Source: a virus (lineage: Duplodnaviria; Heunggongvirae; Uroviricota; Caudoviricetes). Taken from it: a stretch of DNA of 34,807 nt. The stretch lies in the IMG/VR virus record IMGVR_UViG_2526164649_000022; one strand, written 5' to 3'. Positions 1 to 34,807 of this stretch are shown here, one piece after another. The position numbers and the translations under genes are program-made. The notes below the pieces were generated by a model, which was given only the letters and a program-made list of their open reading frames with translations, made no database searches and was not told the DNA's origin. Position 1 is the first letter of the stretch. Each line of letters opens with the position of its first letter.

Positions 1-738
1 TCACTTCGGGTAAGGCTGAATCCTGAATAGCTTAGTATTTAGTCGCTTTCTTGCGCGCTTGTTCAGGAACCTGATGTAACGATATTGATTAAATTTGTGT
101 ACCACGGCCCGCTCCTTATTCGCTCGTAAATATTCGCCGCGCTTCCCTCCACGATTAATCGCATTCATCGTTATCTCGTGATACCACTCACCGTCCAGTT
201 CGTAGAATATGCTTTCATGGCTGCCAATAAAATCAAAATTTGACGCCTGATACACAACACCTGCACACCCGCAACGTTCGTCTGCAAAGGACTGAACCCA
301 CTCCACTGACGGATACAGTAACCTGATGGTTTTCAGCGCGTAGCTGATGGCCCGTGATTCAGAGTTGCGGGGCATGTCGTCGTGTAGCCACATGCGGTTC
401 AGTTCCATATAGCCCCGGTTATCCGTTTCAAGCACAACGCGACGCCCTGAGTTGGGGTTAAGGGCATATCCCCACTGAAGAACACCAACCAGATCACGTC
501 CACTGAATACGCCCAGATGCAACCAGGAGTTATTCACAAAACGGCGGGAATAATGCTTTGTCTGAATGATTGTGCGGGCCAGCCAGCAGGATATGGTTTC
601 AACGCGCAGCTCCCTTGAACCATAGCCGACAATCCGGCCTTCATACTCAATAACGCAGGGTTTTGTCAGAATGCGTGATTTCTTCTCTTTTCCCACAATA
701 CAGCTCCGTGGGATGCTCCCGGGCACTCGATATGACAA
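1..738 (-). CDS. mom: Mom-like DNA modification (anti-restriction) protein; stop codon at window positions 1-3; start uncertain because the reading frame overlaps com
   Basis: 245-aa ORF immediately downstream of, and overlapping, a recognisable com zinc-finger gene, as in the Mu com-mom operon at the phage right end. Confidence 0.7.
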
Positions 739-832
739 TGTAACGTTTACAGCGAGGACATTTGATTTCTATATGCTTAAAACCTCCTTTAAACAGCAAT
801 TTATTGCAATTTTTACAACGAACAGAGTCCAT
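647..832 (-). CDS. com: Com zinc-finger translational activator of mom
   Basis: Internal Met of the 81-aa track ORF gives a 61-aa product [13 protein letters not shown]...CPRCKR with a CxxC...CxxC zinc finger closely matching recalled Mu Com; overlaps mom. Confidence 0.8.
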
Positions 833-892
833 AATTTCCCCCAGTGTAATAACAGGATATAGCTGCCCGGAGGGCTGGGGGTATTTAATCAC

Positions 893-957
893 ACTTGATG
901 CAAACCGACGATCGATATGATGCTATCGATCGTCATAAACTATACAAACTGATTATT
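893..957 (-). promoter_or_regulatory. Putative com-mom promoter/operator region with a Dam-site inverted repeat
   Basis: Perfect 10-bp inverted repeat ACGATCGATA/TATCGATCGT (908-917 and 924-933) carrying two GATC sites, about 75-100 bp upstream of the com ATG; Mu Pmom is known to be Dam/OxyR regulated. Confidence 0.4.
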
Positions 958-8531: not shown

Positions 8532-9591
8532 GTGGCCACCGCCTTTGTTTTTTCGTCTTCGCTTTCATTTCCGGCATGTCCAGTGATTCAGGCGGAACCA
8601 GCGCCAGAACCGTCATCCTCCCCTGTGCGCCATCCGTCCATGTCACCCCGGATATCAGCCAGGTGGTTTTCAGGTTCTGAATGCTGTCGTCGATATCGAC
8701 AAGGCGGTTGGTCTGCCACAGCGGGCCGCTGTCGCCCTGTTCGCGCCAGCCTGCCACCGTGATTTCCGTCGTGCGGGACTCTCCCAGCATCCGGGCTTTG
8801 TACCATTCCCCGCGCATGCTGGCCCCGCCCACGGTCAGGCTGTCTTCATTGACCAGAATGCGCGGGCGGTAACGGTTAATTTCCGGGTCTTCGGTGATGT
8901 ACTGGCGACCGCCCACCATCGGGGCAGGCTGGCTGTCCCACAGTTTGCCACCGGCACTGGTGGTGCCCTTGATGATGTACTGGCTGTTACGCTCCCGCCA
9001 GCTGAAGCGCCCACGGGCGGCGAGGATATTTTTTCCCAGCACCAGTGACACGCCCGCGCGAACGGAAGAGGCGCGGGTGATAATCAGGTTACCCGCGCCG
9101 TCAGACGTCAGCAGAACGCCGCGCTGTTTTGCCAGCCGGTCGAGCAGTTCAAAGCCCGTTTCACCCTGTTCCAGAACGACAGACGCAAATGCCTCCCCGG
9201 TCGGGGTTTCCGTGATGACGGTTATCCCGAACGGGCGGCAGACATCAGCCGCCACCTGTTCAAGCCGCACGCCTTTCCATTTCCCGGACGAATGCACCAC
9301 AGAGCAGTCCACCAGGTCGCCGGTTTTATCGCGCCCCATGACGCGAATCTCCAAGTTTTCAGCGTCATAGCCGGGAATAAAATCATCGATATACCCCGTC
9401 AGCACGGTATCCGCGCCCAGCCTGACCGTGCAGGGTTGCCCCTCACGAATCACGCGCGGTGCCGCCGCTGACCAGCGGGTTGTCACACTGAGTTCAAACT
9501 CACCGGCAATCGCCTTCAGGGAACGGCTGACGGACATTTCCGTCCAGCCTTCCCACAGTTTGCCGTCAACGGTAAGAATCACGGATTCCAT
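8488..9591 (-). CDS. Tail/baseplate hub protein (Mu P, gp44-like)
   Basis: 367-aa ORF between N-like and V-like genes. Confidence 0.6.
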   Translation of the reverse strand: MESVILTVDGKLWEGWTEMSVSRSLKAIAGEFELSVTTRWSAAAPRVIREGQPCTVRLGADTVLTGYIDDFIPGYDAENLEIRVMGRDKTGDLVDCSVVHSSGKWKGVRLEQVAADVCRPFGITVITETPTGEAFASVVLEQGETGFELLDRLAKQRGVLLTSDGAGNLIITRASSVRAGVSLVLGKNILAARGRFSWRERNSQYIIKGTTSAGGKLWDSQPAPMVGGRQYITEDPEINRYRPRILVNEDSLTVGGASMRGEWYKARMLGESRTTEITVAGWREQGDSGPLWQTNRLVDIDDSIQNLKTTWLISGVTWTDGAQGRMTVLALVPPESLDMPEMKAKTKKQRRWPHGIKRNCSPPATDG

Positions 9592-12685: not shown

Positions 12686-12752
12686 GATTTCCGTGCTGAG
12701 ACGGCTACCTGAGGTGTACTGGCAATAGCGGACACTACCATTTGTTCTTTTT

Positions 12753-13571
12753 TTAAGCAGCCATCTGATGATATTTTTCCCTGAAGGCTGCCGGGGAGAT
12801 ATTCCCCAGACGAGAGTGACGACGCTGACGATTGTAGAAAATCTCAATGTATTCCCGTATTACTGAGATGGCTTCATCCCGGTTATTAAAACGATAGTGG
12901 CTCAGGCTCTCATTTTTCAGCGTTCCCCAGAAGCTTTCCATCGGAGCGTTGTCGTAACAGTTACCTTTACGCGACATTGATGTTTTCAGACCAGACTGCT
13001 CCTGTATGACCCGGTAATCGTATGCGCAGTACTGTGAACCTCGATCAGAGTGGTGGATTAGCCCGGCAGGTGGGCGCTGGCTCCTGAGCGCCATAAACAG
13101 GGCTTTACCTGTCAGCTCTTTTGTCATGCGCTCTCCCATGGCGTAGCCGACAATTTCACACGTATAAACATCTTTGATGCCAGCGAGGTACAACCATCCC
13201 TCCTGTGTGGCAACATACGTCAGGTCCGCCACCCAGACCTGATTTGGTGCTGTAGGAGCGAACGTCTGGTTCAGCAGATTTGGCGCAACTGGCAGATTGT
13301 GGTTCGGGTTCGTAGTCGCTCTGAACTTGCGTTTCTGCTTACAGCGTAGCCTTAGCTCCTTACGAAGACGTGCCAGTCGGTCACGACCAACGATGATGCC
13401 ATTCTCTGCCAGCTCCGTCTGGAGCCGCCGGGTTCCATATGTTTCGCGAGTGCGGATATGTGCCACCTTAATCTCCAGTTTTAGCCGCTCATCACTTTGT
13501 TTTCTGTCTGAGGGTTCATGCTGTACCCAGTTGTAATAACCGCTCCTGGATACACCAAATACCTGACACAT
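12753..13571 (-). CDS. IS600 transposase OrfB (DDE integrase domain)
   Basis: 272-aa ORF with IS3-family integrase features, downstream of OrfA. Confidence 0.9.
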   Translation of the reverse strand: MCQVFGVSRSGYYNWVQHEPSDRKQSDERLKLEIKVAHIRTRETYGTRRLQTELAENGIIVGRDRLARLRKELRLRCKQKRKFRATTNPNHNLPVAPNLLNQTFAPTAPNQVWVADLTYVATQEGWLYLAGIKDVYTCEIVGYAMGERMTKELTGKALFMALRSQRPPAGLIHHSDRGSQYCAYDYRVIQEQSGLKTSMSRKGNCYDNAPMESFWGTLKNESLSHYRFNNRDEAISVIREYIEIFYNRQRRHSRLGNISPAAFREKYHQMAA

Positions 13572-13606
13572 CGCTTCAATGGGAAATTGTTGTCGCCATT
13601 GTTCGA

Positions 13607-13909
13607 TTAACGCGTATTTTTCAGCGACTCCTGTGCAAAATACGCTGTTGCTTTTTTTAATATATCTCGCTCAAGGCGAGCTTCATTTAACGCCTTACGC
13701 AGTTGCAGAATTTCAGATTCCAGTTCAGCCACCGTGCGGGAACCAGGAGTACCGAGCCCTTTTCTGGCGGCGGTAACCCATTGTCCTAAAGTGCCTTCAG
13801 GAAGGGATAATCGGGAAGCGCCTTCACTGATCGAAAGTTGATTTTCAAGAACCGTTCTGACAGCTTCGGCTTTGAACTCTTTAGAGTAACGTTGGGTTTT
13901 TCTGCTCAT
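13607..13909 (-). CDS. IS600 transposase OrfA (HTH/leucine zipper)
   Basis: 100-aa ORF MSRKTQRYSKEFKAEAVRTVLENQLSISEGA..., typical IS3-family OrfA. Confidence 0.9.
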   Translation of the reverse strand: MSRKTQRYSKEFKAEAVRTVLENQLSISEGASRLSLPEGTLGQWVTAARKGLGTPGSRTVAELESEILQLRKALNEARLERDILKKATAYFAQESLKNTR

Positions 13910-13965
13910 TATTAGCTCCTTCTGATGCCATTCTATTTCAGGAAGGAGTGTCCGTTAAACTCAGG

Positions 13966-14181
13966 CTACCTCAACCTGTTGCCATACTGTTTCTCCAGTT
14001 GCTTTATCAGGCGGAACAACTGCCGCAGGGGCAGTTGTTCCAGGTACTGAATGCTGAATCGCGAAGACAGGTTAACCAGCAGGTTCATCAGTGCCGCCGC
14101 CAGCGGCATCAGTTCGCCCCCGCGTTGCCACCTCCTCAAGCATGTCATCCAGCACAGCCGCTTTCGTGCTGATAAGCTCAA
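13966..14181 (-). CDS. Frameshift extension frame of the tail assembly chaperone (G-T-like); last two codons and stop lie in the IS600 terminus
   Basis: ORF overlapping the 3' end of the chaperone gene in another frame, with a G5 run (C5 on plus strand, 14117-14121) at the overlap. Confidence 0.45.
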   Translation of the reverse strand: MSLSARKRLCWMTCLRRWQRGGELMPLAAALMNLLVNLSSRFSIQYLEQLPLRQLFRLIKQLEKQYGNRLR

Positions 14182-18445: not shown

Positions 18446-19351
18446 TTATGCCGGGGGGGTGATGTACGGGCTGTCCACGATCTCCACATCCTTGTACCAG
18501 ATGTTGGAATCGCCGCCGTTAACCAGCATGGCGTCAATAATGAGCTTCGCGTCCGCACGGTTTTTCGGCCCCACCACAAGGGTGGTCGGGCGGATGCCCA
18601 GCGGCTCACCGTTGGTGCCCTTCATGCCCCGCAGCAACTCATTGGCTTTTTTGTAGTTCTCCACCGTCAGTGCTGCACGGGAACCGACGGCGGTCTGCCA
18701 GAAGCCGAAGCCCGCATTACAGCGACCGTCCACGCCGTACAGGAACTCGTGGTTCTTGAAGGTGTGCTCGCTGTTCAGATCGTCCAGGGCTTCAAACTTA
18801 AAGGCGCGTCGCGTCTGCCAGATGATGGGTTTCAGCACCTGCGACTCATCAATCAGGAACCACGGTTCGCCCTTGTCTGATGCCGGGGTGCCGACAACGT
18901 TGCTGTACGTACCGTCACCCAGCGGGTGGTCTTCATCAAAGAAGTTCTGGCCGTCAAAGCACAGGGTGTTAAAACCGGCACACAACAGGGCGTAACACAG
19001 CTTGTCCGGGAACACAGCAGTCATACGGCCATAGCGTTCGGCGGTAATGCTGTACTGACCAATCTGGTCATCTTCAATGTGTTCACGCTTAACGCGAATG
19101 GAACTTTCCCAGAGTTTGTTGGTGATGGTGTAACCATAACCGTCCAGCGTTGCCAGCTGACGCTCACCGACCCATTCTTTGATGTCCGGTAAATCTTTCA
19201 TCCAGCCGTAAGTGTTGGAGGCGGACGAACTCGGCACCTCAGAAGCAATACGATTCCACTGCGGTTCGACACCACTCAGTCCACGGGTAAAGGCGGCGCT
19301 CAGGCAGGTGGTCAGTGCATGAAGGATTTCAGAACTGATAGTCTGTGACAT
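18446..19351 (-). CDS. Major capsid protein (Mu T-like)
   Basis: 301-aa ORF directly downstream of the protease/scaffold gene. Confidence 0.8.
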   Translation of the reverse strand: MSQTISSEILHALTTCLSAAFTRGLSGVEPQWNRIASEVPSSSASNTYGWMKDLPDIKEWVGERQLATLDGYGYTITNKLWESSIRVKREHIEDDQIGQYSITAERYGRMTAVFPDKLCYALLCAGFNTLCFDGQNFFDEDHPLGDGTYSNVVGTPASDKGEPWFLIDESQVLKPIIWQTRRAFKFEALDDLNSEHTFKNHEFLYGVDGRCNAGFGFWQTAVGSRAALTVENYKKANELLRGMKGTNGEPLGIRPTTLVVGPKNRADAKLIIDAMLVNGGDSNIWYKDVEIVDSPYITPPA

Positions 19352-19358
19352 GTGTTAC

Positions 19359-20315
19359 TTACTCCTGTTTCGGTTTAGCGGCGAGGAACTCTTCCCCGGT
19401 AATACCCATGCTGCGACACATCGCCAGTTCGGCATCGGTCAGTGTCTGCGCGGGTTTATCCTTGCCCTGGCTGGGCTTGTCGTTGTTAACCAGCGGCTGT
19501 GCACCTTTGGTGTACTCCGCAAACTGTTTGCGGCCTTCTTCCGTGCGGCAGGTGGCAAGGAACATGTCACGGTTTGCCGGGGCGACTTTTCCGGCCCCGA
19601 TGGCCGCATCCACAAGCGCCTCGGCTTCCTTCTCTTCCAGTTGCTGAAGGCGTTTTTCTGCGGTTTCGGCACGGTTCAGTGCCAGATTGTGGGTTTCCAC
19701 CGGCACAAACTTCGTCAGGTCAGGTGTCTGTGCGCGGTTCAGCGCCACCTGTTCGTTCTCCTGAAGTTGTTTAATGGCGGCCACGGTATCGTCCACCGTG
19801 GCGGATTCAGCCAGCCCAAGCAGGCCGGTGATTTGCACAGGTACTGTCATCGGGTTTTTCTCCGTATTCAGTGCAGGAAAATCCAGGTTAGGTTTGTTGG
19901 TCAGCCCGACGCTGGACAGGCGCGTCACCGCACCGTCTGCGTCATGGAAAAACGCCGGGCTGTAATAGCGGTAGCGGCGCTCGCTCAGCATCCACCGGGC
20001 GGACTCACTCCAGACAACACGCCCTTCAATGGTGCCGCTGTCCGTCACCCGCAGTGCTTCCACCCAGCCATACGCCGGAGCCTCTTCACCCCGCGGGCCT
20101 TTAATTTCGGTGGCATGTTCAATGTCCACCGGAATGTTGATGTCGGACGAACGGGCAACCACCTCATGTGGATTGCGGTTCATCCACGTCCGGCCATCGC
20201 GCCCGGTGAACTCACCCGCAGGAACGAGTTCAAGCCATTCCGGCAGTTGAGCGGGTGTCAGCTCAGGGATGGGTTCTGGCAGGGAAAAACACAGCGCCAG
20301 CAGTTCCGGTTGCAT
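19359..20315 (-). CDS. Head maturation protease / scaffold (Mu I/Z-like)
   Basis: 318-aa ORF with coiled-coil C-terminal half, immediately upstream of capsid gene. Confidence 0.7.
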   Translation of the reverse strand: MQPELLALCFSLPEPIPELTPAQLPEWLELVPAGEFTGRDGRTWMNRNPHEVVARSSDINIPVDIEHATEIKGPRGEEAPAYGWVEALRVTDSGTIEGRVVWSESARWMLSERRYRYYSPAFFHDADGAVTRLSSVGLTNKPNLDFPALNTEKNPMTVPVQITGLLGLAESATVDDTVAAIKQLQENEQVALNRAQTPDLTKFVPVETHNLALNRAETAEKRLQQLEEKEAEALVDAAIGAGKVAPANRDMFLATCRTEEGRKQFAEYTKGAQPLVNNDKPSQGKDKPAQTLTDAELAMCRSMGITGEEFLAAKPKQE

Positions 20316-20364
20316 GTCAGTCTCCGTCGTCTGGGGTTACCGACGGTCAGTATGCGGAAGGCAG

Positions 20365-20390
20365 AAAAAAAGCCGGATTTACCGGCTTCA
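20365..20390 (-). terminator. Putative intrinsic terminator between F-like and I-like genes
   Basis: Minus strand reads AAGCCGG-TAAAT-CCGGCTT followed by a T run; identical 26-bp element recurs at 27916-27941. Confidence 0.5.
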
Positions 20391-20529
20391 CTGAAAACGG
20401 GGAAATACCCCCTTCAAAACCCCTTCAAAAACGCCACGGACGCTTCAAAAAAGCCAGGGTGTACATTCATGCCATCAGAATAAAAAACGCGTTTCTGATG
20501 CGTTTCAGGGGCATTTACGGCGGGGAGGG

Positions 20530-21294
20530 TTATTCACTGTTAAAACGGGCCTGTCTGGCCGCCAGCTGGCGCGCCAGCTCCTGCTCACGGTTTATGCCGG
20601 GATTGTAGTTCCAGCCCGGATCAATCCCTTCCGGCACCTCTTCCTCTTCGCCCGTACGTTTGTTCACCCAGCGGACAGTTCTGATTTCCGGCGCTTCGGT
20701 GTGAATGGTGCCCTGTGCCGCCAGTTGCGCATACTCACCACGGCTGACCTGACGGATGGTGCATTTGCAGCCCCAGCCGTTAGGGGCAAAATGCGTCTGC
20801 CAGAACGGATGCTCTACCGGCAGACACAGACGCGCCCATTTCACATGCTCCACCCGGTGCTCACGGGATGGCCCCAGCTCGTACATCAGATACGGCATGG
20901 CCTGCTTTGTCCGCTGAATGCGTTCCCACTGGCCCGCCGCGCGGGCGGTGCGCATGTTGGTATCAAAAATCGTGCGGAGGCGGCGGTCGCTGCCCAGTTG
21001 CACGGTGCGGGTTTCACCCGTCAGCGGATCATCCATCTCCTGTACGCCCCACCATCCGCGTTTTATCAGCAACGGTTGCAGCATCTCCTGGAACTCGCTG
21101 AACGTCTGCCCGCTTTGCAGGGCGTCTTCCACAAGGGCTTTCACATCCGACAACAAATCCAGTTGCAGCATTCTGGCCACGGGGAAGCTGTACCGGTGCT
21201 CTTCCCGCCACACATCCCGGTAATCAAAACCGGGACGCAGCTTCTTCGCCTTCAGCCACGCCAGCGCCTCTTTCGGGATGAGGGTTTCACGCAT
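20530..21294 (-). CDS. Head morphogenesis protein (Mu F-like)
   Basis: Downstream of portal; likely start MRETLIPKEALAWLK at 21294 rather than 21351, which would overlap the portal gene by 65 nt. Confidence 0.65.
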   Translation of the reverse strand: MRETLIPKEALAWLKAKKLRPGFDYRDVWREEHRYSFPVARMLQLDLLSDVKALVEDALQSGQTFSEFQEMLQPLLIKRGWWGVQEMDDPLTGETRTVQLGSDRRLRTIFDTNMRTARAAGQWERIQRTKQAMPYLMYELGPSREHRVEHVKWARLCLPVEHPFWQTHFAPNGWGCKCTIRQVSRGEYAQLAAQGTIHTEAPEIRTVRWVNKRTGEEEEVPEGIDPGWNYNPGINREQELARQLAARQARFNSE

Positions 21295-22858
21295 GAGCAG
21301 TGTCTCCCAGCGCACGCGCCTTAAAGCACACCTCCGCCAGTTGCAGGGCAAAGTCGTCCGCGTTCAGCGTTTCCTGAAGCTCAGGCAGGCGTTTCAGAAA
21401 GTCATCAAAACTGTCGCACTCCTGCGCCAGTGTCAGCACCGGGTTCGTGAACGCCTCGCCGGTTTTCTGCCAGTCACGCAGGGCATCATCCACCATCTGT
21501 GCCAGTTCGTCGGGGTGTTCCCTGTTCAGGGCGACGCGCTCGCGGTTCATCGCCATATCACCCGGCATCCCGGCAGACACCGGATGCAGAACATCAGCCC
21601 CTTCGTCTGGCTCAGCCAGGCCGAACCGGTCCCGCAGCGCCGACTCCTGAACCCGCATCCCCCGGTCAATCAGCGCCACCAGAGCATCTGTCAGCGCCTT
21701 CAGATCTTCGGCTTCACTGATACGCAGAACAACACGGGGGTAGTGCGCCTGTGGCCCGTAGTTGGCCTCGATGTAGGGCCGCACCAGATATTCATTCAGC
21801 GTGTTAGCCAGCTGCCGCGCGTCCCAGCGCACAATGTCCATGCGCACCTGATTGTGCACGTCCGCCTGTGAACGCGAACTGCCGTTATCCGTGGTCATGG
21901 TCTGCCCCAGCACAGCCTTACTGATTTGCGCATCACACCATTCCGCCATTTCACGGAACAGTGCGCCGCCGTTATTCCGGCTGGCGGTTTCCTGCATCTC
22001 CAGTTGCATGGACTGCGGAATGGCACACCCGGCATCCGAGGCAATGGAGGCAATCGCATCAATCAGTACGCGGATTTGCTCCTCCGTGGCGTTGGGACCG
22101 TATTTCCCCACCGTGACCGGAATGCCGAATTTTTCCGCGAATGCCCACCAGTCACGCACGGTAAAGGATTTCAGCATGTACATTACCGCCACCAGACGGG
22201 CCAGACCGTTACGCAGCGGCAGACCGGATTTCAGGCGCGGCTGGTGAACAATGAATTTTCCCGGTGTCAGTGGTACACCATCCACCGGTTCATCATCCGT
22301 CAGCAGGCGGAACTGGCGCAGTGTGGGCTTTTCGGCTTTCAGAAAACGGGGATCAACCCACTCATAATCACGGGGCACCCAGTGATTGTTACGGGTGTTC
22401 CACAGAATTTCACAGACCGCCACGCCTTTTCCCAGCCCGTCGAGCAGATCAAACATCAGCTCGGGGATTTGCGGGGCTTCCATCAGCGCACGGATGGCGT
22501 CCGCCAGCTGCACGTCAGCATCGTCATCACTGGCCGCCACCACCACCGGTTCGATACCCGCCACCGTCAGCTTGCGGGTGCGCAGTACCGAGGCGTAATG
22601 CAAATCGCGTTCTTCCATCTCTTCAGCAAGGATAAAAAAATCACGCGTGATACCGTCGGCGGCATTGCGCAGAATACCGGCCAGTCTGCCGGGATTCAGC
22701 CCGGAGGCGATGCTGATGCCCGGAGAGGCCGGACGCACACCCGCCTGACGCGGACGGGCCTGTACTTCATCGAGCCTCTCTTTTTTCAGCGTGTCTTCCT
22801 CACCGGTTGCCGGGTTCAGCAGACGGCGAACGGCCCCGGCCAGTTGTTTCAGGTTCAC
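21287..22858 (-). CDS. Portal protein (Mu H-like)
   Basis: 523-aa ORF directly downstream of the large terminase gene. Confidence 0.8.
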   Translation of the reverse strand: MNLKQLAGAVRRLLNPATGEEDTLKKERLDEVQARPRQAGVRPASPGISIASGLNPGRLAGILRNAADGITRDFFILAEEMEERDLHYASVLRTRKLTVAGIEPVVVAASDDDADVQLADAIRALMEAPQIPELMFDLLDGLGKGVAVCEILWNTRNNHWVPRDYEWVDPRFLKAEKPTLRQFRLLTDDEPVDGVPLTPGKFIVHQPRLKSGLPLRNGLARLVAVMYMLKSFTVRDWWAFAEKFGIPVTVGKYGPNATEEQIRVLIDAIASIASDAGCAIPQSMQLEMQETASRNNGGALFREMAEWCDAQISKAVLGQTMTTDNGSSRSQADVHNQVRMDIVRWDARQLANTLNEYLVRPYIEANYGPQAHYPRVVLRISEAEDLKALTDALVALIDRGMRVQESALRDRFGLAEPDEGADVLHPVSAGMPGDMAMNRERVALNREHPDELAQMVDDALRDWQKTGEAFTNPVLTLAQECDSFDDFLKRLPELQETLNADDFALQLAEVCFKARALGDTAHA

Positions 22859-26662: not shown

Positions 26663-27060
26663 GAATCCCCCTTATGAAAACGGCGCTGATGTTTATAAAG
26701 TGCCGCACAAAAGATACCGCCCAGCCAGAACGCCAGCTGATAAGGCTCCTTCAGATAAAGAAGGCCGAATGTCAGCATGAAAAAACCAACGGCCCAGACC
26801 ACCCATGACCACACGACAATTCGAAGGGAGGCGGCCCGGAAACGCCTTTTGGGTTGCAGGCGATAAGGTACGTTGCCCAGCTGGAAACTGTGAATCAGGC
26901 AGAGTGTCGCGCCGTATGCCAGCACCATGACCGCAAACGCCCGCCATCCGGCAAAACAGCTCGCCAGAAAAAGTACTGCCGACAGCCCCAGAAACGACCA
27001 CTGGCACAACATAAAGCGGGAGTAAATAACGCGAACAAAAAGACTATTCATTCTGTGCAT
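26650..27060 (-). CDS. Multi-pass membrane protein (holin-like candidate)
   Basis: At least three hydrophobic segments; internal Met start (MHRMNSLF...) at 27060 preferred over the track start at 27156. Confidence 0.4.
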   Translation of the reverse strand: MHRMNSLFVRVIYSRFMLCQWSFLGLSAVLFLASCFAGWRAFAVMVLAYGATLCLIHSFQLGNVPYRLQPKRRFRAASLRIVVWSWVVWAVGFFMLTFGLLYLKEPYQLAFWLGGIFCAALYKHQRRFHKGDSWTR

Positions 27061-27271
27061 TGAGTTTTTCCTTGTACTTCTGGCACTGCCAGAAAATGTC
27101 CCGTGTATCCACGGTGTTCCAGCCACGCATGTAGTAGCTGGCGTGTGTGCCGTCATGGCCGGTATAGTCCAGCGGTTTCGGAGGCGGACCTCCGGCCATA
27201 CGGTGCAGAACCTCCTGACGCAGGCGGTCGCGTCGCCCGGCTTTCAGTGAGGCATCCCAGCCTTTGCCCAT
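27044..27271 (-). CDS. Hypothetical small protein downstream of endolysin
   Basis: 75-aa ORF starting 2 nt after the endolysin stop; no recognisable domain. Confidence 0.3.
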   Translation of the reverse strand: MGKGWDASLKAGRRDRLRQEVLHRMAGGPPPKPLDYTGHDGTHASYYMRGWNTVDTRDIFWQCQKYKEKLNAQNE

Positions 27272-27272
27272 A

Positions 27273-27860
27273 TCACCCCCGCGTGGCGGACGGCGCGTTG
27301 TCGATGATTTCCAGACAGGCGTCGGTCAGTTCTTCCATGCGGTTAAACCATCCGTTCAGGTATTTGCCCTGGGCGGGTTTTGATTTGATGATGTCGGCAT
27401 AAAAGCGGGAACGACGGACAATACAGCGGGTCAGCAACCAGTCCGGGTTAGACAGGTTCACGGCCCTGCGGGTACGCGGGCCGATGATGCCGTCAGCATC
27501 CACATCAGCGGCTTCCTGCAAAATTCTGATGGCTTTTTTAACGCCATGCTGAACCGCCGCATCGAACACAAACAGCGCTACACCATCAGGCCACTGCTCA
27601 CACCCGGCTGGCAGCCAGTAATCGCGCCAGTAAATCTGCGCAGCCTGTTCGCGGGTCAAATCTTTGATGCGGGTATCCGGTTTGCCGTCTCCGTTGACGT
27701 CGGTTTTGCCGTCAATCACACCGTCGCGGCGGTCAGAAATGCCGTATCTGGTTTCGCCGCCACGGTCAGTGGGGTCATTGACATAGACGCCTTCGATATC
27801 GGGACGCAGAATAAAATTCAGCGCATACTCAAAGGCCGGGGAGAATTTTTGATTTTCCAT
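27273..27860 (-). CDS. Endolysin (glycoside hydrolase family 108-like with peptidoglycan-binding domain)
   Basis: 195-aa ORF, first gene after the Mor-family activator and terminator; family call from recalled motif architecture. Confidence 0.65.
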   Translation of the reverse strand: MENQKFSPAFEYALNFILRPDIEGVYVNDPTDRGGETRYGISDRRDGVIDGKTDVNGDGKPDTRIKDLTREQAAQIYWRDYWLPAGCEQWPDGVALFVFDAAVQHGVKKAIRILQEAADVDADGIIGPRTRRAVNLSNPDWLLTRCIVRRSRFYADIIKSKPAQGKYLNGWFNRMEELTDACLEIIDNAPSATRG

Positions 27861-27915
27861 AAAAGCACCTGTGAAGCAGATTTAAACGTGGTCTGCTTCA
27901 TGGTGCCGGAGGCAT

Positions 27916-27941
27916 AAAAAAAGCCGGATTTACCGGCTTCA
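27916..27941 (-). terminator. Putative intrinsic terminator after the Mor-family gene (end of early/middle operon), upstream of endolysin
   Basis: 7-bp stem AAGCCGG/CCGGCTT, 5-nt loop, T7 tract on the minus strand; identical to the element at 20365-20390. Confidence 0.5.
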
Positions 27942-27945
27942 TTGA

Positions 27946-28395
27946 TTAAGGACGTCGTGGCGGACGACGAACGGGGTGAGGCAGGTTCGGGGAGTGGTAA
28001 AACAAATCCGGCTGGTATTTATTACACTCCAGACGCCGCATCCGCTTGATGGCCTTGTAGACGGTTTTATACGTCACCCCGTAACGCTGAACCAGTTCAG
28101 GAATATTATGGCCGTTAAAATCACGCCAGATACGCATATCCCGGACAAGATTCTCCAGAATATTCCCCCTCGGAACATAAACCTGCATCCCGCCGATATA
28201 GCGACAAATCGCCACAACCAGCTCAAGGGAATGGGCAGGGTCTGCGCCAATCCGGGCCAGCTCTTTACGCAGCAGTGCGTTCAGTTCAGAAAGTAACGCC
28301 GGATAAGCCGTGTTTTCCTGGTAATCGTTAAGGTATTCCAGAACGCTGTCGTCCCGGAAGTCTTCGAATAAATCCTGCTCTTTCATCTGTTTCAT
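27946..28395 (-). CDS. mor: Mor/C-family transcriptional activator of middle/late genes
   Basis: 149-aa ORF directly downstream of GemA-like gene with C-terminal helix-turn-helix region (ELVQRYGVTYKTVYKAIKRMRR), as in Mu Mor/C. Confidence 0.7.
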   Translation of the reverse strand: MKQMKEQDLFEDFRDDSVLEYLNDYQENTAYPALLSELNALLRKELARIGADPAHSLELVVAICRYIGGMQVYVPRGNILENLVRDMRIWRDFNGHNIPELVQRYGVTYKTVYKAIKRMRRLECNKYQPDLFYHSPNLPHPVRRPPRRP

Positions 28396-28943
28396 ACAGC
28401 AATTCTCCCGCTGTTTCGTGCGCGGGCATACGCACTGGTCAGTGCATCATAGCCGCGCAGCTCCTGCCCGGTTTCGCTCACAGGTAAAGGCACACCATGT
28501 CGGGCAAAGGCTTCACGGATGCAGCGCATATGCCACTGTTTGAGCGTTTCGAGCACAACCTGCAACGATTCCCCGTGACACCAGGCCAGCGTGGAAACAC
28601 CCTGACCGCCATTACGTCTGGCTGTCAGGCGTTCAACGTATTTGTCCAGCGCAGCGTCGCTGATATCGGAGACGAAACCATCAAGGAACATCTGCTGCCA
28701 GATTTTATAAATCTTCTCGCGCGGTGTGACATGCCCCTTAAAGCGACGGCGGGGATGTTTTTTCTGCTTCTTAAAACCGCGCTCTTTCATGGCATCGAGC
28801 ACACGTTCCAGTTGTGCAACGGAAAGCTCGCGGCAACTGGTTTTGCCCGTGCACTGCACCAGAAAGGTGCGGTAAGTGTCATCGTCGAGTTGCAGGTCAC
28901 GACGGGCAACATGAATTAATTTAATCAGGGATGTGCAGCTCAT
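28392..28943 (-). CDS. gemA: GemA-like protein (Mu gp16-like)
   Basis: 183-aa ORF immediately upstream of the Mor-family gene, matching Mu gemA-mor order. Confidence 0.55.
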   Translation of the reverse strand: MSCTSLIKLIHVARRDLQLDDDTYRTFLVQCTGKTSCRELSVAQLERVLDAMKERGFKKQKKHPRRRFKGHVTPREKIYKIWQQMFLDGFVSDISDAALDKYVERLTARRNGGQGVSTLAWCHGESLQVVLETLKQWHMRCIREAFARHGVPLPVSETGQELRGYDALTSAYARARNSGRIAV

Positions 28944-29081
28944 TATGTCCCCCCGGATTTAAAATTAATTCGGTGTTGAATAGCTCTTTACTCATTCGAT
29001 GTAGCACATCGAGGGCGGCAACTGCCGCTACTTTATCCTGGCTGGCAATGATTTTTCGTAATTCCTCAATAATCCAGGCTG
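28921..29081 (-). pseudogene. 3' fragment of an early-region gene truncated by IS1
   Basis: The reading frame ending at 28921 continues upstream only into IS1 sequence; the phage-derived part is about 53 codons. Confidence 0.35.
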
Positions 29082-29136
29082 GGTAATGCTGCCAACTTAC
29101 TGATTTAGTGTATGATGGTGATTTTAAGGTGCTTGC

Positions 29137-29412
29137 GTGGCTTCCATTTCCATCAGATGTCCTTCCTGCTCCGCTACTGAAGGCGTGGTGCGTAACGGCA
29201 AAAGCACTGCCGGACATCAGCGCTATCTCTGCTCTCATTGCCGTAAAACATGGCAACTACAGTTCACTTACACCGCCTCTCAGCCCGGTACGCACCAGAA
29301 AATCATTGATATGGCCATGAATGGCGTCGGATGTCGCGCCAGTGCACGCATTATGGGCGTTGGCCTCAACACGGTTTTACGTCACTTAAAAAACTCAGGC
29401 CGCAGTCGGTAA
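29137..29412 (+). CDS. insA: IS1 InsA
   Basis: 91-aa [42 protein letters not shown]... matches recalled InsA. Confidence 0.9.
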
Positions 29413-29834
29413 CCTCGCGCATACAACCGGGCAGTGATGTGATTGTCTGCGCTGAAATGGACGAACATTGGGGCTACGTCGGTGCTAAATCACGTCAGCG
29501 CTGGCTGTTTTACGCGTATGACAGGATACGGAGGACGGTTGTGGCGCACGTCTTCGGTGAACGCACTCTGGCCACACTGGAGCGTCTTCTGAGCCTGCTG
29601 TCGGCCTTTGAGGTCGTGGTATGGATGACGGATGGCTGGCCGCTGTATGAATCACGCCTGAAGGGAAAGCTGCACGTTATCAGCAAGCGTTACACTCAGC
29701 GCATTGAGCGACATAATCTGAATCTGAGACAACATCTGGCAAGGCTGGGACGGAAGTCACTGTCGTTCTCAAAATCGGTGGAGCTGCATGACAAGGTCAT
29801 CGGGCATTATCTGAACATAAAACACTATCAGTAA
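29331..29834 (+). CDS. insB: IS1 InsB reading frame (expressed as InsAB' by -1 frameshift)
   Basis: ORF overlapping the insA 3' end and ending ...[15 protein letters not shown], as in IS1. Confidence 0.85.
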
Positions 29835-29880
29835 GTTGGAGTCATTACCCGGATTTTGACGTTCATTGTCAGCGTTCCTT

Positions 29881-30419: not shown

Positions 30420-31370
30420 CTACCAGTTCAGTAACCTGGGGTTGCTGTAAGCCTCCTTAAAAGCCGCTTTAATGTGACTTTTATTCAGGGATGTGCCTGC
30501 ACCTTTTGCCGCCAGCCACGCATGATTCAGTGTGTGAGTTAATACACGCAATTCCCCGGGCTTTTCGGCTACCCTCATCAGCAGGTCCAGCTCATCTTCC
30601 TGTGTTACTCCCCATGCTTTGGCTACAGCCATCACATCGGTCTTTTTTACTTTGCGCAGTTGTTTTGTCATGGCAAAACGGCTGAACAGACGGGCCAGTT
30701 CATCAGTCCCACGACGGGTGGCATCCGCCATCTGTTTCGGGTTGCCAATTAAAACCATCCCCACGCCAGTGGCATCCTGAATGGCGCGTAATTGCTCCAG
30801 ACCATCCACACTTAAGTGATCAGCTTCATCAATAATCAGAAGGGGGTTAACACGGCCACTGGTTTCTTTACCACCACCCAGTTTTCTGCGAATGGCGCGG
30901 GTTATATTCCCCTTATTTCTTCCCGGATTATTAATTTCCAGCGCATATGCTATTTCAAGGAGGCATTCCGTTACGCTCGAATGTGCCGGAGCAAGAGTCA
31001 CCATCCAGGCATTAGCTGTCCTGCGACAATATTCCCGGGCAGCAAAGGTTTTTCCGACACCCGGTACGCCAACAACGACACTGATAATCCCGAGTGAGCG
31101 CACTGTTTTAAACAGCTCATGCAAATCACAAAATGTCTGGGTCTTCACAACACCAGGGGTACCTGACAAGTTCTGTCCCTTCTGCCAGACCTGATACCAT
31201 TTCTGTAATTTGTCATGCATACCTTCGACATTACCGTTGTACTCTCCTTTACGCAGAGCCGAGAGTGTTGCCGGAGACATTCCGGCTTCATCAGCAATAT
31301 CTTCCTGAGACTTGTCGCCCTCGTTAATCAAAGCGTTAATAGTGTTGAAAACATCATCAATATCAGTCAT
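30420..31370 (-). CDS. B: Mu B-like AAA+ ATPase (transposition target-DNA activator)
   Basis: 316-aa ORF with Walker A GVPGVGKT, immediately downstream of the transposase gene. Confidence 0.85.
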   Translation of the reverse strand: MTDIDDVFNTINALINEGDKSQEDIADEAGMSPATLSALRKGEYNGNVEGMHDKLQKWYQVWQKGQNLSGTPGVVKTQTFCDLHELFKTVRSLGIISVVVGVPGVGKTFAAREYCRRTANAWMVTLAPAHSSVTECLLEIAYALEINNPGRNKGNITRAIRRKLGGGKETSGRVNPLLIIDEADHLSVDGLEQLRAIQDATGVGMVLIGNPKQMADATRRGTDELARLFSRFAMTKQLRKVKKTDVMAVAKAWGVTQEDELDLLMRVAEKPGELRVLTHTLNHAWLAAKGAGTSLNKSHIKAAFKEAYSNPRLLNW

Positions 31371-31445: not shown

Positions 31446-33273
31446 TCAGGCCAGCGGATCATCTTCTTCCTGCATGGCAAAAAGTTTTTGCATCCCCAGC
31501 CGGAAATCGCGTTCAAATTCTTCGTCATGCTCTTCTTCATATTCCGGTTGCTGAACTGCCACCACATTACCAACCGGGCGATAAACATTACTCAGCCAGG
31601 GTTCAGCCTGTTTGTGTTCCAGAATCTGAATACCTTCATCTTCAGCATCACGAATTTTTTCCTCAGCGCGTTTGCGCATTCCTTTAATACGCTGCTGTTG
31701 TTTGTGATATTCAGCACTGACAGCAAAGGCTGCGCGTTTATTGCCGTTCCATATCGCCTCACAGATAAAGCTGCCGTCCTTGCGACGTACCGTAATTCGC
31801 TCGGCGTCATGAATGTCATAACTGATAAGCACTTTGCGACCGTGTTCGTCACGCAACTCCGGCGCGTAGTAAATATTGTTCAGCCACTGAATTTCGCAGC
31901 GTCTTACCGGTCGTTCCACCATTGGGCGGAACATGTCGCGCAGCTCAAGATCACTCAGCCACTCAATTTCGGTGTCTTCTTCTGCCAGGCGTTTTTTCTG
32001 AACTCTGTCGGGCTGTAATGCCGTCCGTTCGGTTTCATCGGCAGCTCAGAATGCGGGCGGTTGTTGTACCATTCCACGCCTTCACGAATAGCCTCAATAA
32101 GCTCCGCCCACGATGGCAGCTCGCGCATTGCCGCTTTCTGGCGGTCGTTCAGAGGCTTGTCCTGTTGCAGGGCGTTAAACGCTGAACGCAGATCACGGTT
32201 AAGTACACGCAACGATTCCCGGTCAGCACCCTTGCCAAAATAGGTGCGATACCTCCTGGCTATACGCATCGGCAGTGTCCGGTTCAGGCGTTCAATAATG
32301 CCGCGTCCCTGTGGATTACCGGCAATACCGGTAGGGTGTTTAATCCCCAGGCGTGGCAGAATACCCACGACCTCTTTGTCCAGCATGTCAGCCGTTTCAC
32401 CGGAACCGTTATCCGAGTAATACAGGAACGGTTTTCCGTGGTTGCGAATGCCGTGCTGTATCGCACCGGCAACGGCGAACACGTTTTCGGCAAGGTCAAG
32501 ACTCCAGCCAACAACAAACCGTGTTCCACCATCGATCACAAACGTGACTTCCGGTGAGAATGGACGCCCGTGGATCGGATGCGCACATTTCAGCTTCATA
32601 CCGTGACCGTCACCAATCCAGACATAATTCACCGGCATAGCTGTCCAGTCGCGGCGGGTGAATCCTTCAAGCTGACGGTATTCACTGCCGGTAACGCGCC
32701 CTTTTTGTTTCACCACTTCCGGCAGTTTTTTCATGGCATACCGGACAACATCATAGGAAGGCATCACCTCCAGCATGTACGGTTCGTCCGCATGGCGACG
32801 CTGCCATTCTGCGACAAAATCCTCGTAGGCTTCTGACATGGGTCTGCCGTTCACCTGGCGATACTGCGCCAGAAATTCAGGCAGCCAGCTGATTTCTTCC
32901 GGTTTTATTTCGTCGCGTTTTCCCGGTGCCAGTAACAGCAGCCGTTCGGCGGCGTTCTGCGACTGGTTGTATTTCAGAACCCACTGGTAAAGTGGATCGC
33001 GGCTGATAGTACGATTAGCGCCACGTTTTGCATTGGCGTTAACTGCGGCCTGTTGCAGGCGCTCCGGCAGCTCACCTTTACGGGCTTTTTCAACAAGAAA
33101 GTTAATGGCTTTCAGTCGCCCGAGGTTACCGGCGCTTTCCAGCTTCAGCACTTCCACCACCAGCGCAGCTCTTGCTTCAGATACCCAGCGCTGGTTTTCG
33201 GTCAGCGCATTCAGGCGTTCTTCCATCAGTTGTGGAGAACCGCGATATGCTTCGATTGCCTGGACAGCGTCAG
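31446..33273 (-). pseudogene. A: Mu A-like DDE transposase, central and C-terminal parts, frameshifted in a T6 run (31992-31997) and severed from its N-terminus by IS600
   Basis: ORFs 31955-33322 and 31446-31934 align to consecutive MuA regions in different frames (...VWIGDGHG... catalytic core; ...NNIYY...DGSFICEA domain III). Confidence 0.8.
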
Positions 33274-33337
33274 TGAGGTAGCCTGAGTTTAACGGACACT
33301 CCTTCCTGAAATAGAATGGCATCAGAAGGAGCTAATA

Positions 33338-33640
33338 ATGAGCAGAAAAACCCAACGTTACTCTAAAGAGTTCAAAGCCGAAGCTGTCAGAACGGTTCTT
33401 GAAAATCAACTTTCGATCAGTGAAGGCGCTTCCCGATTATTCCTTCCTGAAGGCACTTTAGGACAATGGGTTACCGCCGCCAGAAAAGGGCTCGGTACTC
33501 CTGGTTCCCGCACGGTGGCTGAACTGGAATCTGAAATTCTGCAACTGCGTAAGGCGTTAAATGAAGCTCGCCTTGAGCGAGATATATTAAAAAAAGCAAC
33601 AGCGTATTTTGCACAGGAGTCGCTGAAAAATACGCGTTAA
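33338..33640 (+). CDS. IS600 OrfA (copy 2; one Ser-to-Phe difference from copy 1)
   Basis: 100-aa ORF identical to copy 1 except SRLSLPEG to SRLFLPEG. Confidence 0.85.
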   Translation: MSRKTQRYSKEFKAEAVRTVLENQLSISEGASRLFLPEGTLGQWVTAARKGLGTPGSRTVAELESEILQLRKALNEARLERDILKKATAYFAQESLKNTR

Positions 33641-33675
33641 TCGAACAATGGCGACAACAATTTCCCATTGAAGCG

Positions 33676-34493
33676 ATGTGTCAGGTATTTGGTGTATCCA
33701 GGAGCGGTTATTACAACTGGGTACAGCATGAACCCTCAGACAGAAAACAAAGTGATGAGCGGCTAAAACTGGAGATTAAGGTGGCACATATCCGCACTCG
33801 CGAAACATATGGAACCCGGCGGCTCCAGACGGAGCTGGCAGAGAATGGCATCATCGTTGGTCGTGACCGACTGGCACGTCTTCGTAAGGAGCTAAGGCTA
33901 CGCTGTAAGCAGAAACGCAAGTTCAGAGCGACTACGAACCCGAACCACAATCTGCCAGTTGCGCCAAATCTGCTGAACCAGACGTTCGCTCCTACAGCAC
34001 CAAATCAGGTCTGGGTGGCGGACCTGACGTATGTTGCCACACAGGAGGGATGGTTGTACCTCGCTGGCATCAAAGATGTTTATACGTGCGAAATTGTCGG
34101 CTACGCCATGGGAGAGCGCATGACAAAAGAGCTGACAGGTAAAGCCCTGTTTATGGCGCTCAGGAGCCAGCGCCACCTGCCGGGCTAATCCACCACTCTG
34201 ATCGAGGTTCACAGTACTGCGCATACGATTACCGGGTCATACAGGAGCAGTCTGGTCTGAAAACATCAATGTCGCGTAAAGGTAACTGTTACGACAACGC
34301 TCCGATGGAAAGCTTCTGGGGAACGCTGAAAAATGAGAGCCTGAGCCACTATCGTTTTAATAACCGGGATGAAGCCATCTCAGTAATACGGGAATACATT
34401 GAGATTTTCTACAATCGTCAGCGTCGTCACTCTCGTCTGGGGAATATCTCCCCGGCAGCCTTCAGGGAAAAATATCATCAGATGGCTGCTTAA
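33676..34493 (+). pseudogene. IS600 OrfB (copy 2), frameshifted by a 1-bp deletion
   Basis: Copy 1 reads AGCGCCCACCTGCC, copy 2 AGCGCCACCTGCC (about 34171-34176); ORF splits into 33676-34188 and 34269-34493. Confidence 0.8.
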
Positions 34494-34536
34494 AAAAAGA
34501 ACAAATGGTAGTATCCGCTATTGCCAGTACACCTCA

Positions 34537-34807
34537 CAGGATTGCGTGTTTTTCTGGTAACAGCTTTCACTTCAGAAACATTGTTCTCTGTAGCCACCAG
34601 CTGTTCCACATAGCGTTCACGCAGTGCCTTTCGTGTTATTTCAGGCAGACAATCAATGTGGTACTCAATGGCTTTTGTGCCTTCCCGACGGCGACTAACG
34701 TCACCAAGATCACGAGAAAAACGCTGTAACGCCTGTCGGATGCCTTTTGTGGTGGCTGGCATTCCTGGTACGCCGAGCAGGTCATTTACGGTAACGTACG
34801 ACTGCAT
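34537..34807 (-). pseudogene. A: N-terminal 90 codons of the Mu A-like transposase gene, separated from the rest by IS600 copy 2
   Basis: ...GTKAIEYHIDCLPEITRKALRERY resembles the recalled MuA N-terminus (...GGKAIEYNANSLPVEAKAAL...); in frame with the 31955-33273 segment once IS600 and one duplication copy are removed; ATG at 34805-34807. Confidence 0.75.

Follow-up and report, generated by a model that had tools for sequence, protein, structure and literature searches.

Two copies of a terminator-like element in a Mu-like prophage resemble the Mu middle promoter Pm and are candidate Mor-dependent late promoters

The middle promoter Pm of phage Mu and its Mor-binding site were reportedly the subject of work by Artsimovitch and Howe in 1996. 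The Mor site of Pm covers positions -51 to -36 and consists of two 5-bp inverted repeats around a G/C-rich hexamer, centred at -43.5; positions -57 to -52 read GTAAAC (Ma and Howe 2015, PMC4390567). The Pm numbering used here was reconstructed from a table in PMC4390567. In the Mu record, a predicted terminator (9179-9200) is annotated within Pm (9163-9233). Plys and PI depend on another activator, C, and the consensus of the C box is TTAT-N5-6-ATAA (PMC12867686). Mor is regarded as a hallmark gene of transposable phages, and no description of late promoters in Mor-only transposable phages was found in the literature searched.

The DNA analyzed here, referred to as the window, is a stretch of 34,807 nucleotides. 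It is an IS-damaged, Mu-like prophage of the E. coli/Shigella type whose genes lie on the minus strand, and the prophage family is carried by about 50 of 5426 complete E. coli genomes. The genes and elements needed below are as follows.

30420-31370, minus strand: MuB
28392-28943, minus strand: GemA, with a stop/start overlap with mor
27946-28395, minus strand: mor orthologue (Pfam Mor match, 4.3e-30; 61% identity to Mu Mor)
27916-27941, minus strand: copy A of the repeated element, with hairpin GAAGCCGG-TAAAT-CCGGCTT(T) at 27940-27920 and T7 at 27922-27916
27273-27860, minus strand: GH108 endolysin gene, lys (Pfam Glyco_hydro_108 and PG_binding_3), which heads the lysis/terminase/portal/F operon
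27044-27271, minus strand: Mu gp18 homologue of 75 codons, 3' of the endolysin gene (60-70% identity in relatives)
also identified on the minus strand: gp27-like small terminase
20530-21351, minus strand: F-like head protein
20365-20390, minus strand: copy B of the repeated element, with hairpin at 20389-20369 and T7 at 20371-20365
19359-20315, minus strand: Mu I-type protease/scaffold gene (Pfam Mu-like_Pro, 6.1e-45), which heads the second late unit
18446-19351, minus strand: major head gene T (Pfam Mu-like_gpT, 2.5e-111), which follows I
647-838, minus strand: com-like gene, with its upstream region at about 845-905
970-2299, 12710-13973, 29081-29850 and 33273-34537: four IS elements (IS2, IS1 and two IS3-family copies)

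The IS2 encodes TnpA and TnpB. The two IS3-family copies are identical and inverted and have 99% identity to the IS600 copy of an intact relative, L002, the prophage of E. coli FDAARGOS_943 (NZ_CP065615.1) at 338-372 kb; one of these IS600-like copies interrupts the tape-measure gene and the other the transposase A gene. Beside IS1, the window has about 0.9 kb where early genes take up about 3.2 kb in the intact relative, a deletion. This IS load is reminiscent of Shigella. The prophage is defective through the four IS insertions and the deletion and, because the IS elements inactivate it, the promoter module described below has probably fallen out of use here. The whole window was scanned for Rfam families and tRNAs without a hit, so that none lies over the two sites. 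A megablast search of a phage collection returned one distant Klebsiella phage only.

The 26-mer AAAAAAAGCCGGATTTACCGGCTTCA (plus strand) is present in exactly two copies, at 20365-20390 and 27916-27941, and no further copy was found in the window with up to 3 mismatches allowed. There were 0 matches in 100 dinucleotide shuffles, and 0 are expected by chance. The repeat extends ungapped to 42 nt with 90% identity (20353-20394 versus 27904-27945), and the flanks beyond it are unrelated. Read on the minus (coding) strand, each copy is TGAAGCCGG-TAAAT-CCGGCTTTTTTT. As RNA, each forms a stem of 8 pairs, 7 of them Watson-Crick and the terminal one G-U, with a 5-nt loop, UAAAU, followed by U7, and the fold energies are -12.6 and -12.8 kcal/mol (z -3.7 and -3.4 versus shuffles). 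Both copies are listed by a terminator scan, and both have what characterizes a Rho-independent terminator, namely a G+C-rich stem, a short loop, a U-run of at least 5 and a position downstream of a coding region. Copy A begins 5 nt past the mor stop codon, 55-81 nt before the ATG at 27860 (endolysin), and copy B lies 49-75 nt before the ATG at 20315 (I). A sequence-only reading of this DNA had claimed an identical 26-bp element, a stem-loop with a T7 tract on the minus strand and positions shortly upstream of these two genes. Exact search and shuffling, folding and the terminator scan (with a stem of 8 pairs including G-U), and the measured distances bear out these claims. The search for further copies that it proposed was run as well, and a dyad search for GCCGG-N5-CCGGC revealed no third site in the window. 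No sigma-70-type promoter near copy A or B was found in a promoter scan.

Both copies align ungapped to Mu Pm, as shown here.

Mu Pm: cagTAAAGCCGGTTAATCCGGCTTTTTTTACGTCCTCAATATCCTG
Copy A: caaTGAAGCCGGTAAATCCGGCTTTTTTTATGCCTCCGGCACCATG
Copy B: cagTGAAGCCGGTAAATCCGGCTTTTTTTCTGCCTTCCGCATACTG

The Mor box of Mu, -51 to -36, is AGTAAAGCCGGTTAAT, i.e., AGTAA-AGCCGG-TTAAT. The Mor box of Mu, like the boxes predicted in the window copies, takes in the hairpin's left arm and loop together with the 5' flank. The right arm with the T-run (Mu -35 to -24; CCGGC-T7) is identical in Mu and both copies. The promoter features predicted from this alignment are the following.

27928-27943, minus strand: predicted Mor box A, AATGAAGCCGGTAAAT, 13 of 16 bases identical to Mu -51 to -36
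20377-20392, minus strand: predicted Mor box B, AGTGAAGCCGGTAAAT, 14 of 16 bases identical to Mu -51 to -36
27900-27905, minus strand: -10-like hexamer A, CACCAT, 22 nt past the loop, in the register of Mu TATCCT (-13 to -8)
20349-20354, minus strand: -10-like hexamer B, CATACT, 22 nt past the loop, in the same register as the Mu -10

The register of these hexamers places the predicted starts at an A at 27892 (copy A) and a G at 20341 (copy B). The hexamers are weak (3-4 of 6 matches), and a -35 is not present at either copy, with 1 of 6 bases matching at the -35 position. At site A, the loop-to-(-10) spacing is 22 nt in 30 of 32 sequence clusters, and one relative (L014) has CACTAT at the -10 position. 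The counterparts of the proximal UP subsite, GTAAAC in Mu, are TTAATC at A and GTTTTC at B; they are A/T-rich, and their sequence is not conserved. The copies also differ from Pm within the box: the loop is TAAAT here versus TTAAT in Mu, and the left half-site is AATGA (A) or AGTGA (B) versus AGTAA in Mu, the dyad being poorer than that of Mu.

With a 53-column weight matrix built from the sites, the window copies scored 73.2 and 71.0, and nothing else in the window exceeded -1.1. On Mu, Pm alone scored with the same matrix (58.3), and Plys, PI, PP and Pmom were below -10. Because the matrix scores only copies A and B, the prophage is predicted to have two such promoters. The scan of the window found no third site for the tail genes or com/mom; most simply, transcription of the I unit may continue into the tail genes. 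From the sequence comparison and the context and conservation patterns described below, we consider it likely that copies A and B are promoters of the Pm type that depend on Mor, with the activator site lying within a Rho-independent terminator.

The com/mom upstream region (about 845-905, minus strand) reads GATTAAATACCCCCAGCCCTCCGGGCAGCTATATCCTGT. Within it, ATACCCCCAG resembles the ATAACCCC boxes of Mu C-dependent promoters, in a phage without C, and ATATCCTGT is common to this region and the -10 region of Mu Pm. The com/mom promoter was considered as a third Mor site, since TAAAT lies 23 nt before TATCCT, but it was rejected for its missing left half-site and low matrix score.

The activator genes of the prophage were also compared with those of Mu. 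The mor orthologue is the sole gene of the Mor/C family: no second one was found by tblastn in the window or in the intact relative, and the C gene is absent. Its product has 32% identity to Mu C, as against the 61% to Mu Mor, and its recognition helix is nearly identical to that of Mu Mor. The sequence-only reading had taken the element for a terminator joined to an activator-dependent late promoter, possibly with an activator determinant, and had pointed to Mu Plys and PI as its counterparts. All computational tests agree with the former part, and the latter part does not stand: when the sites were compared with the C-binding sites of Plys and PI, there was neither sequence similarity to Plys, PI, PP or Pmom nor a TTAT-N5-6-ATAA box at the late junctions of the window, where this motif occurs only at 29807 (inside IS1) and 30241 (early region). 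By this comparison, the predicted counterpart of the element is the Mor-dependent Pm and not the C-dependent Plys/PI. The Mu record does have terminator/promoter pairs at the same two junctions as copies A and B, and this shared genomic position would speak for C-dependent late promoters like Plys and PI. Such promoters are hardly credible here, however, given that the C gene is absent from both the window and the intact relative, that the late junctions have no C box, and that Plys, PI, PP and Pmom are dissimilar to the sites and score below -10 with the matrix.

The C-terminus of the prophage Mor (27946-28020) ends ...YQPDLFYHSPNLPHPVRRPPRRP. QPDLF is the C-terminal clamp-binding consensus of the Mor/MuC family (PMC12867686); the prophage Mor has QPDLF, and Mu Mor has QPSLL. 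QPDLF in the prophage Mor would fit Mor as a late activator. The proline/arginine-rich tail of Mor was observed in the E. coli lineage only.

Two junctions were distinguished in other genomes: A, from mor/gemA to lys, and B, from portal/F to I/T. A search with the Mor protein gave ten genomes of Pluralibacter, Raoultella, Klebsiella, Serratia, Kluyvera and Brenneria, in which Mor is 66-71% identical, and GAAGCCGGT[A/T]AATCCGGCTTTTTTT lies immediately upstream of the GH108 lysis gene in all ten. These ten genomes were chosen independently of the element; the conservation of the core at A is unbiased only for them, because the sites from IMG/VR were themselves retrieved by searching for the core. 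Scanning IMG/VR for the exact pattern gave 98 stretches; with the genome loci and the window added, the exact copies number 118 and come from 10 other enterobacterial genomes, some 80 viral contigs and the window itself. All of them are at the two junctions. A small extra gene separates mor from the element in the Mor-found genomes, and a 160-codon gene does so in one E. coli relative. Since the element stays by lys despite the extra gene, it travels with the downstream operon and not with mor.

The sequence-only reading had itself raised the doubt that the element might be a generic host repeat found at unrelated sites. In a search of 5426 E. coli genomes, only 51 had a match over at least 80% of the element, in line with the roughly 50 prophage carriers, and the high-identity hits listed were beside mor or in unannotated DNA. 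There is a look-alike in the host, the map-glnD terminator AATGAAGCCGGCGAATGCCGGCTTTTTTAATGC (L015, 1203-1235; E. coli UTI89), which has 88% identity over 33 nt and resembles the element including the flanks, with a 6-nt loop of different sequence. It is found at one locus per genome in about 740 E. coli genomes, and the resemblance is probably due to chance or convergence. The look-alike might suggest a host repeat such as REP or ERIC, or a widespread host terminator, yet it is a single locus per genome, the matches are as few as the prophage carriers, and every exact copy is at a phage junction. We give this explanation a negligible probability.

Variation among relatives revealed which half of the element is kept. 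The sites upstream of I, which were found by gene context and not by pattern, fell into 14 sequence clusters. The full 8-pair stem is present in 7 of these, and the right arm and T-run are degraded in the other 7, as in GAAAGCGG-TTAAT-CTACTTTCTTCTCCC and GAAGCCGG-TTAAT-CCACCTGAGTCCCC; the loci L007 and L009 have B sites of this degraded kind. On the other hand, GAA[A/G][G/C]CGGT[A/T]AATC is kept in all 14, including those with a decayed right arm, and CATACT, CACACT or GACACT is found 22-23 nt past the loop in 14 of 14. The half that survives at B is the half that is the Mor site in Mu, which argues against a terminator alone, since a terminator would constrain both arms equally. Selection acts on the hairpin too, as two lineages show compensatory stem changes (GAAGGCGG/CCGCCTT and GAAACCGG/CCGGTTT). 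Upstream of lys, where transcription from the early operon comes in, the stem is intact at every site and is followed by 7-8 T's, an observation that is unbiased only for the ten Mor-found genomes. These comparative patterns point to a dual-function element.

The loop occurs in two forms, TAAAT and TTAAT, and the loops at A and B agree in 21 of 22 distinct phages that have both sites. The form of the loop is associated with one residue in the recognition helix of Mor, VYKAI[K/R]RMRRL. All 33 distinct proteins paired with TAAAT have Lys there; of the 20 paired with TTAAT, 14 have Arg and the other 6 keep Lys, and Mu itself has Arg with TTAAT. The association gives a Fisher value of 1.6e-8 when shared ancestry is ignored, and the loop/residue switch is seen between Mor proteins that are otherwise 99% identical. 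Because ancestry is uncorrected and there are exceptions, this covariation is taken as supportive only.

These results bear on whether the copies are intrinsic terminators and nothing else, identical by duplication or gene conversion, with the late promoters located elsewhere. The hairpin with T7 is terminator-grade, its stem shows compensatory changes, and both copies follow the last gene of the upstream unit, all of which a pure terminator would explain. In a pure terminator the loop should be free, yet here decay is confined to the right arm and T-run, the left arm and loop being invariant, and the loop co-varies between the sites and with the Mor residue. Nor would a pure terminator account for a -10-like hexamer at fixed spacing or for a near-copy of the mapped Mor site of Pm, and there is no other promoter candidate in the 55 or 49 nt before the genes. 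This explanation is unlikely in our judgment.

The region just upstream of copy B (20396-20470, minus strand) contains three TTTTTGAAG-type repeats and a GGGG-TATTT-CCCC hairpin. It aligns with the Mu G-I intergenic region, which is marked as the gyrase cut site in the Mu record, and it is probably, by sequence, the homologue of the strong gyrase site of Mu. Relatives in other genera have TTTAAACG repeats at this position, and a 46-nt piece of the region matches unannotated spots in a few E. coli genomes. The copies could be imagined to be DNA sites for another phage process, such as gyrase action, transposition or packaging, as copy B directly follows this homologue. However, copy A has no such neighbour, the gyrase-site homology stops upstream of the element, and the match to Pm spans the Mor box, the spacer and the -10. 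It is very improbable that the copies are sites of this kind.

If the copies are Pm-type promoters, short leaders lie between the predicted starts and the late genes, and both leader regions contain inverted repeats.

27864-27907, minus strand: leader fold-back at A (-21.2 kcal/mol, z -4.7)
20324-20346, minus strand: leader inverted repeat at B, CCGTCG...CGACGG, which adjoins the I ribosome-binding site

In the fold-back at A, GGCACC and UGAAGCAGA, which include the -10 hexamer, pair with UCUGCUUCA and GGUGCU, the Shine-Dalgarno sequence of lys. Given the predicted start, this fold-back can form only in RNA that was started upstream of the promoter. Most of the 32 A-leader clusters can form a corresponding pairing from other sequences, one compensatory example being GGCA/UGCC versus GGAA/UUCC. 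Over the 32 clusters, the Shine-Dalgarno sequence was unpaired with a mean probability of 0.30 when the RNA read through from the terminator; the value was 0.54 for RNA begun at the predicted +1, and 0.44 for read-through RNA whose left part had been shuffled (Wilcoxon about 1e-6 for read-through versus +1 and 8e-6 for read-through versus shuffled, with clusters that are not independent and a +1 that is itself predicted). Because the fold-back pairs the lys ribosome-binding site, leaked read-through RNA is predicted to be poorly translated. With lower confidence, and on the strength of these modelled pairings, we suggest that the fold-back would add a translational block on early-operon leak into the lysis genes. 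The B-leader repeat spans from the last bases of the -10-like hexamer to near the I ribosome-binding site, and relatives show compensatory changes in it (CTGTCCGTC/GACGGACAG, GTCCGG/CCGGAC and TCTGCAT/ATGCGGA). A B-leader hairpin that hides the I ribosome-binding site was considered and found unsupported, with no signal of Shine-Dalgarno occlusion.

Reasoning from the homology to Pm, the genomic context and the conservation patterns, which are observed, we propose how the two copies may work. In RNA, the hairpin and U7 would stop transcription from upstream, that is, from the gemA-mor early operon at A and from the lys-to-F operon at B. In DNA, the Mor box would consist of the 5' flank, left arm and loop (AATGA/AGTGA-AGCCGG-TAAAT), with its centre about 43.5 bp before the start; the -35/spacer region would be filled by the right arm and T-run, ahead of a weak -10 (CACCAT or CATACT) 22 nt past the loop. 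Mor made from the early operon would bind there and recruit sigma-70 RNA polymerase, and transcription would start near 27892 for the lys operon and near 20341 for the I operon. At A, the -10 region of any read-through RNA would fold back on the lys ribosome-binding site. In a prophage with Mor and without C, the late genes would thus be under the direct control of Mor, in a two-tier cascade versus three tiers in Mu. The joint reading goes further: a compact insulated cassette with the terminator in RNA, the Mor box in DNA and fold-back silencing, in a C-less two-tier cascade, with the loop and the Lys/Arg residue as a co-evolving specificity pair. We put it forward tentatively, as possible and somewhat short of an even chance.

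The sites are concrete predicted targets for Mor in a widespread enterobacterial prophage family, and they suggest that the three-tier cascade of Mu is one wiring among several. Natural variants, namely B sites with or without the terminator half and TAAAT or TTAAT loops with Lys or Arg, could separate the two functions and the base recognition by Mor. Furthermore, the 16-bp box and its spacing are usable as an annotation marker of late operon starts in these prophages.

Among the described systems, Pm shares with the copies a position downstream of gemA-mor, a -10 in the same register without a -35, and a Mor box that overlaps the terminator hairpin of the early operon. It differs in number and in target: Mu has a single copy, for the middle operon (gp18-20 and C), and there are two copies here, which precede the lysis/head and protease/capsid operons. 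Moreover, gp18 is the first gene behind Pm in Mu, whereas here the endolysin gene lies between the Pm-type promoter and gp18. Plys and PI share the junctions (activator gene to lys, and head-morphogenesis gene to I), and each follows a predicted terminator and depends on an activator of the Mor/C family, as is predicted here for Mor; PI also has a similar leader layout (CTGCTCA/TGAGCAG). They differ in that their activator is C, which is absent here, in that the TTAT-N5-6-ATAA box is missing here, and in that the sequences cannot be aligned. IS10 and IS50 are known for fold-back inhibition of read-through transcripts, and the likeness lies in site A, where the -10/start segment would pair with the ribosome-binding site only in RNA started upstream; the difference is that the gene concerned here is a phage late operon and not a transposase gene, and that site B gives no signal. 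The candidate element is a known kind of regulatory site, and it is its predicted wiring that differs: it is duplicated, it would serve the late operons directly, and it would work without C.
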